Assembly (NCBI RefSeq): GCF_041248615.1
Contig: NZ_CP158427.1
Source: Escherichia coli
GTDB taxonomy: Bacteria > Pseudomonadota > Gammaproteobacteria > Enterobacterales > Enterobacteriaceae
DNA: 64,000 bases
Strand: one strand, 5' to 3'
Shown here: positions 27,701 through 30,700 of the stretch, one piece after another
How positions within the stretch are numbered: the stretch's first letter is position 1
How the letters are laid out: every line of letters begins with the position of its first letter
Position numbers: made by a program

Positions 27701-30700
27701 CCTGCTGTCACCCTTTGACGTGGTGATATGGATGACGGATGGCTGGCCGCTGTATGAATCCCGCCTGAAGGGAAAGCTGCACGTAATCAGCAAGCGATAT
27801 ACGCAGCGAATTGAGCGGCATAACCTGAATCTGAGGCAGCACCTGGCACGGCTGGGACGGAAGTCGCTGTCGTTCTCAAAATCGGTGGAGCTGCATGACA
27901 AAGTCATCGGGCATTATCTGAACATAAAACACTATCAATAAGTTGGAGTCATTACCAAACAGGGATTATTTATTCTCTCAGGCGAGAATAAAATAGACGA
28001 AGAATGTTTCATTAATATAGTCCAAACGGCTGTCGCCATAAATAACATCGGTAGAGAATCTAATGGTTATATTTTAGTTGGTGTTTCCGATACCAAAGCT
28101 ACGGCAGACAGAGTTAAGACTTTATATGGTGTTACCCCTATTGAGTGCAATGGCTATTATATCAATGGAATTGATCATGAAGCTGTAATTCAATCAAAAA
28201 ACATAGATAATTACTTTCTGTTCATAAAACAAAAAATAGAATCATTTAATTTTAATGAGGCTTTGAAACAACAAATACTAAAAGATATTTCATTATGTTC
28301 ATATGAAGGACTGCATGTTTTAAAAATCGAAATAAAAAGTGTCGGAGAAGTCTGTCATTTTGAAAATAGGTATTATATAAGACAAGGAACAGCTACGCAT
28401 TTAATCACTGACGGTGAAGCAATTAGTAGTTTACACAGATTATATTACTCATAATTACTTAAGCACTATGAAGGTATCATACACCTTCATAGTGTACTTT
28501 TTTACTGCGCTTTGGGGCTAAATTGTTTTTGTGAATAGCCAGAATATCGTGGCTACGGCGGCAATGGAAATATATGATCTCTGCTGCCAGAGACTGGAGA
28601 TGTAATTGGGGGCAGTTTGGATATCGAAAATTATTGTACTATAAGGGGTCCGCTTGAGGGGGCCGCTTGGAAAACGGAAATTTTCCCACGCTAAGAGAAT
28701 TGAGTTGAACGAGTGGTTACATCTAGGCCAGCTAACTCACTGAACGTAAAGGCTGTACGAAATGTTCCGACCGTCCGATAACCATTTGGCTTACTTCCGT
28801 ACATTTCCTTGCGTAGATGTACAGAATTGTACGATTTCGGACACCAAAACTGCTGTTGTCCCGGTGCATGAAGCTACTTTCCGGGTTGGTGGTACTGACT
28901 TTGGTGTTCTTAACGACGACGTTTTCAACTCTGAAAATCGCCTCTCTGCACGGGGATTTTTACCCCCCCATAGAGCCGTCATATAAATTCAAATTATTAA
29001 CTTTGATGGTAGAATTATCTTAGGTTTGATAAAATTTTGAGCCGTCGCCGTTTACTTCACAGGATTCAATATAATGGCTAAATATACAGTTTGTGATTAC
29101 CAATAAACTATTAGAAATAATGGGAATGGTTGTGCCAATCTCTATCTGGAGGTCTTATTGCAGGGAACATCCACCCCATCGTTACACCAATACAGAATTG
29201 CCCCCGATACAAGACATCCAGACATTAACCTAATAAAAGCGCACCTTGACGAGGGCTTTCAGCAGGCAAAGTCTGAGGGATTAAAAGTAGAGATTTCAGA
29301 TTATAAAGAACGTCTTTACCTGTACATTAGAACACCTGGTAATAACCTAATGCAATATTCTGGTTGCAGAGAAAAATAATACAGTCGCGCTGGATACGCT
29401 GACATTGACGCAGTTATATGATTTTCTGGCGTTGGTCAGTAAACCAGCTGCAGCCAAAACGGTGTAGTCCCTGACACAGGCGCCGGTCATTCTGTTAACT
29501 CATCCACGTATGGGATGAACAGTTGTTTCAGTTTGAAACCAGGGATGTCAGACGGATTTTTGCTGGCGAGTACGAAATCCGTTACGAACTTAATGGCCAG
29601 ACTATTTATGTATTGCGCCTGTGACACACACGAGAAAACAGGTAGATTGTGTGTGAGGGCAACTTTAACATAGCCTGCAGGTGTTAATTCAGGAGCATTG
29701 TTATCAGACCAAATATTTTTCATTCCATTAAATAGTCTTGTAGGGGATAAAATGAATTACGATGAAATAACGAAAATCACTGCAGAACGTATTAGCGACT
29801 ACATGACTGAAGCGGTTAATACAGACTCTAAATCTGTTGCGGAAATGTTTCATAACGCTGCATGGGGAGTGCTATCATTGTGGTTTGAACTCGTCACAAA
29901 AATAGATCTGGATATACATAAAAAGAACAGGTATGCAAGTTATGATTTTAGAAGAAAAATCGAAATGCAGCATGAAGAGTTTCAGAAAATGACAGAGCGT
30001 GAGCAAGTGCCTTTATTGAAATTGCCTGAATAACAGAGACAGTGCAAACGATTATTTCATAATAACGATTATGTAATGACTGGTAAGAAAATAACTTGAT
30101 TGAGTTCCCTTTATCCAGCCTGATAGTGGATAAAGGGAACTCAATAATAATTGAATTAATTTATTAGCTTCATCGCATTTTTTTTGGTCTCTTCATCACT
30201 TTTTTGCTCTTGTTGTGAAGAGGATTGAGTGACTATTGAAGAATTAAAATCGGCCATCTCTTTTGGAAATAGCGATCTCAATATATTCACGATATCTGAA
30301 AATGTGGTTTCTTTCGTCAGCAGCTCACATAAAAGGAAAGGGGTCCGGGGATCTTGTCTGTATAAGGCCAGACCTGCCGTCAGTGCGGCCCGGTTAAGGC
30401 GGCTTCGTTCCCCTTGCGGGATACTGTCCAGTGTATCACAAACAATTTTATCTGTTTGATTTACATCTGGATTTAGTTTGAAGGCAATGGTTCTGCGCTT
30501 GTCCATCATTAATTACCTATGAGATACATACCGTTAACTAAATCATATTGAGAGTTATTGGTTTTGAAAAAACGTTCATCACGAATCTGTGTGTGTTTTT
30601 TTACTGCATCGCATATTAATTCTGCGCCACCGCCTATAACCATAACATGAGTATAACCAGAAAATTCATTGAGCGTATTTAATACACGTTGCTCAAGTTT

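Follow-up and report, generated by a model that had tools for sequence, protein, structure and literature searches.

The window analysed here, a stretch of 64,000 nucleotides from an Escherichia coli contig (NZ_CP158427.1), contains a copy of IS26, the chloramphenicol resistance gene catA1, a complete IS1 and, directly past the right end of the IS1, an open reading frame with a hairpin behind it (Table 1).

Table 1. Features around the IS1 junction, with positions in the 64,000-nucleotide window.
Feature	Position	Strand	Basis
IS26 abutting the 3' end of catA1	25481..26300	+	terminal repeats; tnpA ORF 25526-26248
catA1, Tn9/Tn2670 chloramphenicol resistance gene, neighbour of the IS1	26306..26965	-	ORF list, R100 annotation
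IS1, 768 bp, equivalent to IS1b of R100/Tn2670	27189..27956	+	terminal repeats, insA and insB frames
Right-hand copy of the 9-bp target-site duplication AAACAGGGA	27957..27965		R100 comparison
3' remnant of the Schlafen gene, codons 426-590 and TAA	27957..28454	+	translation, identity to intact gene, Pfam
Hairpin of 13 pairs, then a T run	28463..28505	+	terminator scan

A preliminary description of this region had placed the start of the frame exactly at the right end of IS1, and this was borne out: the frame opens at the first base past the element and runs for 165 codons to a TAA at 28452-28454, and its translation includes both of the peptides quoted at the time (NGYILVGVSDTKA and YYIRQGTATHLITDGEAI). 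Those peptides had been taken to resemble an AlbA_2 (Schlafen-like) domain, and a Pfam profile search agrees, matching the frame to SLFN_AlbA_2 (PF04326) with an i-E of 1.9e-5. When the stretch was shuffled, none of 20,000 versions stayed open, and its other five frames have 9-20 stops each. Its G+C content is 30.9%, versus 53.5% for the IS1 and 50.4% for the window, which suggests an AT-rich donor of the gene and would make it a favoured target of IS1. One could suppose that the frame is a product of chance or that its likeness to AlbA_2 is spurious, and the E-value obtained with the fragment by itself is indeed modest, but the shuffling result and the matches to PF04326 in 47 of 75 full-length relatives refute this reading, which has practically no chance of being correct.

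No ATG, GTG or TTG occurs in the frame before codon 103, which is a TTG at 28263, and the remnant is therefore an open frame rather than a callable gene. A single promoter-like site was found, which is weak, and shuffled sequences contain more of them. RefSeq sometimes calls proteins of 147-167 aa at such remnants, apparently from ATT- or ATA-type starts, and names them “RNA-binding domain-containing protein” or “AlbA family DNA-binding domain-containing protein”. We also noted that the stop codon of insB (TAA, 27939-27941) is in frame with the remnant, with five codons (VGVIT) between the two (region 27939-27971), and read-through of this one stop would join the C-terminus of the IS1 transposase to the Schlafen fragment. 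As such an arrangement has a one-in-three chance of occurring, the match of frames is probably a coincidence.

When the 165-aa fragment was used in a word-index protein search, all that came back were further fragments; it was tblastn against plasmids that led to the intact gene. It encodes a protein of 590 aa (RefSeq WP_001262766/7, annotated as “DUF262 domain-containing protein”) and lies directly 3' of repA, a CPBP-family gene, pemI, and pemK in the IncFII backbone of plasmids that include pEC00688_3, p33673_IncF, and several ETEC and STEC plasmids. RefSeq also uses the name “GmrSD restriction endonuclease domain-containing protein” for it, and our literature searches for DUF262 with pemK, for the WP accessions, and for DUF262 with AlbA_2 found nothing. 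The frame in the window is 100% identical to the last 498 bases of this gene (positions 6001-6498 of L003, a plasmid region with the intact gene), and the claim that the gene is truncated at its 5' end by the IS1 is thus correct. The 182 bases that follow, through position 28636 of the window, also match the sequence behind the intact gene at 100% identity, and the hairpin, which begins 9 bases past the stop codon, is the native terminator-like end of that gene, kept with the remnant.

The junction between the IS1 and the remnant is also found in the resistance plasmid R100 (NR1; NC_002134.1), whose annotation shows codons 1-425 of the gene directly behind pemK, continuing into IS1a. Positions 27957-29200 of the window (1.2 kb) are identical to the R100 sequence directly after IS1b, and catA1 lies across the IS1 from the gene piece in both. 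The IS1 of the window begins with GGTGATGCTGCCAACTTACTGAT, ends in ...AAGTTGGAGTCATTACC and is complete, and the element at the same place in R100 is annotated as IS1B. Beyond 28636 the identity to R100 goes on while that to L003 ends, so the backbone downstream of the gene differs between IncF lineages. The uninterrupted gene reads ...ATGATTTT / AAACAGGGA / TTATTT..., and the corresponding sequence in R100 is ...ATGATTTTAAACAGGGA-IS1a...IS1b-AAACAGGGATTATTT... The nine bases AAACAGGGA, which encode K426-Q427-G428, are therefore present directly before IS1a and directly after IS1b, that is, at both outer ends of the unit, and a complete IS1 with its terminal repeats abuts the target, as in an insertion of the Tn2670 type; the window and the plasmid that matches it (see below) hold only the right-hand end. 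Because the 9-bp duplication flanks the whole IS1a...IS1b unit, we conclude that the gene was split by the insertion of the IS1-flanked resistance determinant. The IS1-bounded unit of R100/NR1 is known as Tn2670 and carries Tn21 and catA1 (PMC8765060), and the IS1/backbone junctions of the Tn2670-derived region of NR1 have been described as signatures that are common to F plasmids and are moved by homologous recombination (PMC8765060).

The history is best explained as follows. The Tn2670 resistance determinant of R100/NR1 transposed into the AT-rich gene between codons 425 and 426 with duplication of 9 bp, so that 425 codons of the 5' part came to lie next to IS1a and the last 165 next to IS1b. 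Since then, this second junction has reached very many F-type resistance plasmids, that of the window among them, either by unchanged inheritance or by homologous recombination. Taken as a whole, it is very likely that the frame in the window is the non-functional 3' remnant of a DUF262-Schlafen gene of the IncFII backbone that was cut by Tn2670.

The preliminary description had attributed the loss of the 5' part to a rearrangement of a Tn9-derived cat-IS1 segment by IS26. Three copies of IS26 (19156-19975, 23304-24123, and 25481-26300) do lie within 7 kb of sequence and within 9 kb upstream of the remnant, and the nearest of them abuts catA1, but it lies beyond that gene and has no contact with the remnant junction. 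The break point is the end of IS1 rather than of IS26, the junction is identical to that of R100, which does not involve IS26, and the 5' part is found there beside IS1a with the matching 9-bp duplication. The history of the plasmid itself also bears on this. All 64 kb of the window are matched at 100% identity by the reverse strand of NZ_LT599826.1 (p14408_1 of E. coli NRZ14408, 120650-56651), a multi-replicon F-type plasmid of 137 kb that has blaKPC-2 and IncN-type transfer genes elsewhere. The 5' 425 codons are absent both from the window and from the entire p14408_1 record, and pemIK is likewise missing from that record. The IncFII replicon region of p14408_1 is ~95% identical to R100, and this homology stops near repA, before the CPBP-family gene and ~1 kb from an IS26. 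A second loss event has thus removed the 5' part together with pemIK in this plasmid lineage, and IS26 may have been its agent. As it could account at most for this later loss, we regard a truncation by IS26 as extremely unlikely and retain the insertion of Tn2670 as its cause. Compared with the R100/NR1 junction, the window shows identical sequence across the IS1 and no less than 1.2 kb of the adjoining backbone, and catA1 and IS1 are arranged alike. What sets the plasmid of the window apart is that IS26 has remodelled the sequence on the left of catA1 and that the IS1a side, with pemIK and the 5' 425 codons, is missing.

Several smaller observations concern the mobile elements of this region and its relatives. 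The last IS26 of the window ends 5 bp from the stop codon of catA1 and replaces the GNAT gene and the end of Tn21 tnpA that precede catA1 in R100, and a fragment of a Tn3-family transposase (462 aa; 24097-25485, minus strand) lies between two of the IS26 copies. A separate part of the window (9554-9808) has a 257-bp, 93% match to the region downstream of IncFII repA, on the opposite strand. In plasmid pK204_KPC (L002, NZ_MK312245.1, 4001-5341), the region matches as two pieces with ~97 extra bases, the IS1 is reduced to a 141-bp ORF adjoining an IS26, and a “hypothetical protein” of 156 aa is annotated over the remnant. This plasmid is an example of IS26 eroding the junction IS1 in another lineage.

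Some part of the gene is carried by 823 of 5,426 complete E. coli genomes. The partial copies match either positions 1-1284 or positions 1276-1773 of the query, and the overlap between these two ranges is the 9-bp duplication, while the uninterrupted insertion site was found in only 103 of the genomes, always on plasmids. Nearly every copy in E. coli is explained by the Tn2670 insertion. Furthermore, tblastn against PLSDB found the remnant unchanged in ~1,000 plasmids. We infer that this wide distribution reflects linkage to a successful junction rather than selection, and the remnant would be retained only through its linkage to the plasmid backbone.

Our domain analysis of the intact protein showed an N-terminal GmrSD_N/DUF262 domain (PF03235; residues 26-165, 2e-19), a helical middle part, and a C-terminal Schlafen/AlbA_2 domain (SLFN_AlbA_2; residues 420-573, 3.4e-5), which has the AlbA_2/Schlafen fold in a structure model. 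Among the PADLOC profiles, those of NsnA (9e-22; residues 10-341) and PD-T4-2_A (1e-18) match its N-terminal two thirds. An NCBIfam search gave no meaningful match. Phmmer of the intact protein against the PDB sequences gave no match either, while BrxU (7p9k) was the best PDB match by both sequence profile and Foldseek, although it was the only one that the profile search returned, and weakly. Relatives are numerous: a search of 1.84 billion representative proteins yielded 243 clusters at E<1e-30, nearly all of them of 580-620 aa and matching end to end, and from these we aligned 75 full-length relatives. GmrSD_N is found in 75 of the 75, and SLFN_AlbA_2 in 47 at E<=1e-3 (best 2.7e-10). Among the residues that are invariant in the alignment are D71, Q74, and R75 of a DGxQR motif, which resembles the DGQQR of GmrSD-type DUF262 domains and is DGMQR at 71-75 in the intact protein, and E419, K426, N455, G467, and G496 in the C-terminal domain. 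The active site of Schlafen proteins has been reported to be a conserved Ex4(E/D)xK motif (PMC13056530), and this motif is conserved throughout the family, with E419 in 75/75, D or E at position 424 in 74/75, and K426 in 75/75.

The genomic context of the relatives is also informative. A homologue in E. coli that is 69% identical (591 aa, with TEQPSYDFKQG kept) is carried in 28 chromosomes by P2-like prophages as opposite-strand cargo, with the baseplate V gene on one side and the virion morphogenesis genes on the other (for example, at L022:8001-9776 in NZ_CP100914.1). Another relative, 58% identical, occurs together with phage repressor and replicase genes on an island bounded by an integrase; one adjoins a restriction-modification system, and one stands alone among metabolic genes. 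Six exact-protein look-ups of relatives, two of which led to contigs too short to show neighbours, revealed no conserved partner gene, and tblastn against phage genomes gave partial DUF262 matches with no full-length relatives. These contexts fit cargo that provides defence as a single gene and do not fit a housekeeping regulator. The preliminary description would have been refuted by an intact homologue that is such a regulator; the settings in which the relatives occur and the fact that DUF262-Schlafen fusions are a published class of phage defence proteins (PMC13056530) both favour the defence-type assignment that had been suggested.

Separately from the Tn2670 junction, the prophage homologue is interrupted by IS1 in two chromosomes (NZ_CP031134.1, 4867880-4870432; NZ_CP195467.1, 3152681-3155233). 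The match spans 2,553 bp for a query of 1,776 bp, and the extra 777 bp are equal to 768 + 9. This is an independent insertion of IS1 in this AT-rich gene family.

By homology to this family, the intact protein is most likely a phage defence system in one polypeptide. Sensing or regulation would fall to the ParB-like DUF262 NTPase domain with its DGxQR motif and to the helical domain, while the Schlafen nuclease at the C-terminus would be the effector, probably cleaving tRNA or other RNA upon infection. The remnant retains the greater part of the Schlafen domain. The IS1 cuts between F425 and K426 (E419-QPNY-D424-F / K426), inside the Ex4(E/D)xK motif, so the remnant is without both catalytic acids and only the K of the motif remains in the window; E419, D424, and the first beta-strand of the fold (residues 423-426 in the structure model) are all missing. 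In RorSlfn5, a tRNase activated by phage, an E15A/D20A mutant was found to be dead (PMC13056530), and by analogy the remnant, if translated, should be catalytically dead as well. It is also without the DUF262 NTPase/sensor part, a promoter, and a canonical start codon, and we infer that it is most likely not expressed, functionless, and inert. As no base differs between the remnant and the intact gene, there is neither decay that would prove a loss of constraint nor divergence that would show constraint.

It could be argued that the remnant is nevertheless expressed, by read-through from IS1 or from a non-canonical start, as a truncated AlbA_2 protein with a function of its own, such as binding of nucleic acids or interference with full-length Schlafen defence proteins, and that it is retained for that function. 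Its unchanged state in the ~1,000 PLSDB plasmids, the RefSeq names of RNA-binding or AlbA family proteins for such ORFs, the in-frame stop of insB five codons upstream, and the native terminator that it has kept would all agree with this. But the late first start codon and the loss of both acids and the first strand of the fold speak against it, as does a single promoter-like site that is weak and below the shuffle counts; the insB arrangement is a one-in-three event, and the prevalence is explained by descent from, or recombination with, the Tn2670 junction of NR1. We therefore consider a functional remnant very unlikely. The intact WP_001262766/7 protein might be an active defence against phages or incoming plasmids whose destruction by Tn2670 was not neutral and aided the spread of the R100-type lineage, either because the defence was costly or toxic or because it acted as a barrier to co-resident mobile elements. 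If this were true, it would explain why E. coli genomes with broken pieces alone far outnumber those with the intact site. In a milder form of the proposal, the Schlafen fragment, although catalytically dead, would be produced and interfere with related defence proteins. We judge the proposal of a non-neutral loss to be very unlikely, and continue to view the remnant as an inert product of the Tn2670 insertion.

The remnant is therefore real, but of a kind that is already known, and ordinary. What the analysis does provide is an identity for the ORF that recurs beside IS1 in more than a thousand resistance plasmids as a “hypothetical”, “RNA-binding”, or “AlbA family” protein, namely that of a pseudogene fragment. 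The RefSeq name “GmrSD restriction endonuclease” is corrected as well, as the effector of the intact gene is a Schlafen domain rather than DUF1524. In addition, the analysis shows that the founding insertion of the R100/NR1 resistance determinant hit and inactivated a gene of a family that is now known in phage defence, and that ~2% of complete E. coli genomes still have the intact allele on plasmids.

Several known defence systems share parts of this architecture. In Menshen, an NsnA-like gene is followed by genes for an NsnB ABC-ATPase and an NsnC effector (PMC12065111). The two PADLOC profiles with matches in the intact protein, NsnA and PD-T4-2_A, represent DUF262 sensor subunits of multi-gene systems, but the effector is separate in Menshen and fused in the intact IncFII protein. 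The neighbours of the gene, whether in IncF plasmids or elsewhere among the contexts that we examined, include no NsnB ATPase, NsnC, or HEPN partner. The GmrSD/BrxU/SspE family of type IV restriction-like enzymes (DUF262 + DUF1524) has in common with the intact protein the N-terminal DUF262 domain with its DGxQR motif of the NTP-binding type. The intact protein differs in that its C-terminal effector is Schlafen/AlbA_2, and neither it nor its 75 relatives have a Pfam match to the DUF1524 His-Me/HNH nuclease domain; the DUF262 part lies wholly outside the window.

The closest parallel is with the prokaryotic Schlafens. A catalogue of 5,930 such proteins from prokaryotes (Perez Taboada et al., Nat Microbiol 2026; PMC13056530) includes 1.8% that are fusions to DUF262, which are published as a phage-defence class. 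[quoted passage not shown] The experiments on nuclease activity and phage defence concern other members than the IncFII protein, namely RorSlfn5 and EcoSlfn7. Compared by architecture, the intact IncFII protein resembles the class of EcoSlfn7 in having DUF262 and Schlafen/AlbA_2 in one polypeptide and in its E. coli origin; strain UC4224 does not occur in any of the 28 records of the prophage homologue or in the ~86 that were covered out of 105 with an intact IncF gene. The piece in the window differs from this class, as it comprises only codons 426-590 and is without both catalytic acids and DUF262. The family of the intact gene shares with the DUF262-Slfn class the Ex4(E/D)xK motif (E419, D/E424, K426), and its relatives occur in contexts that are typical of defence genes.
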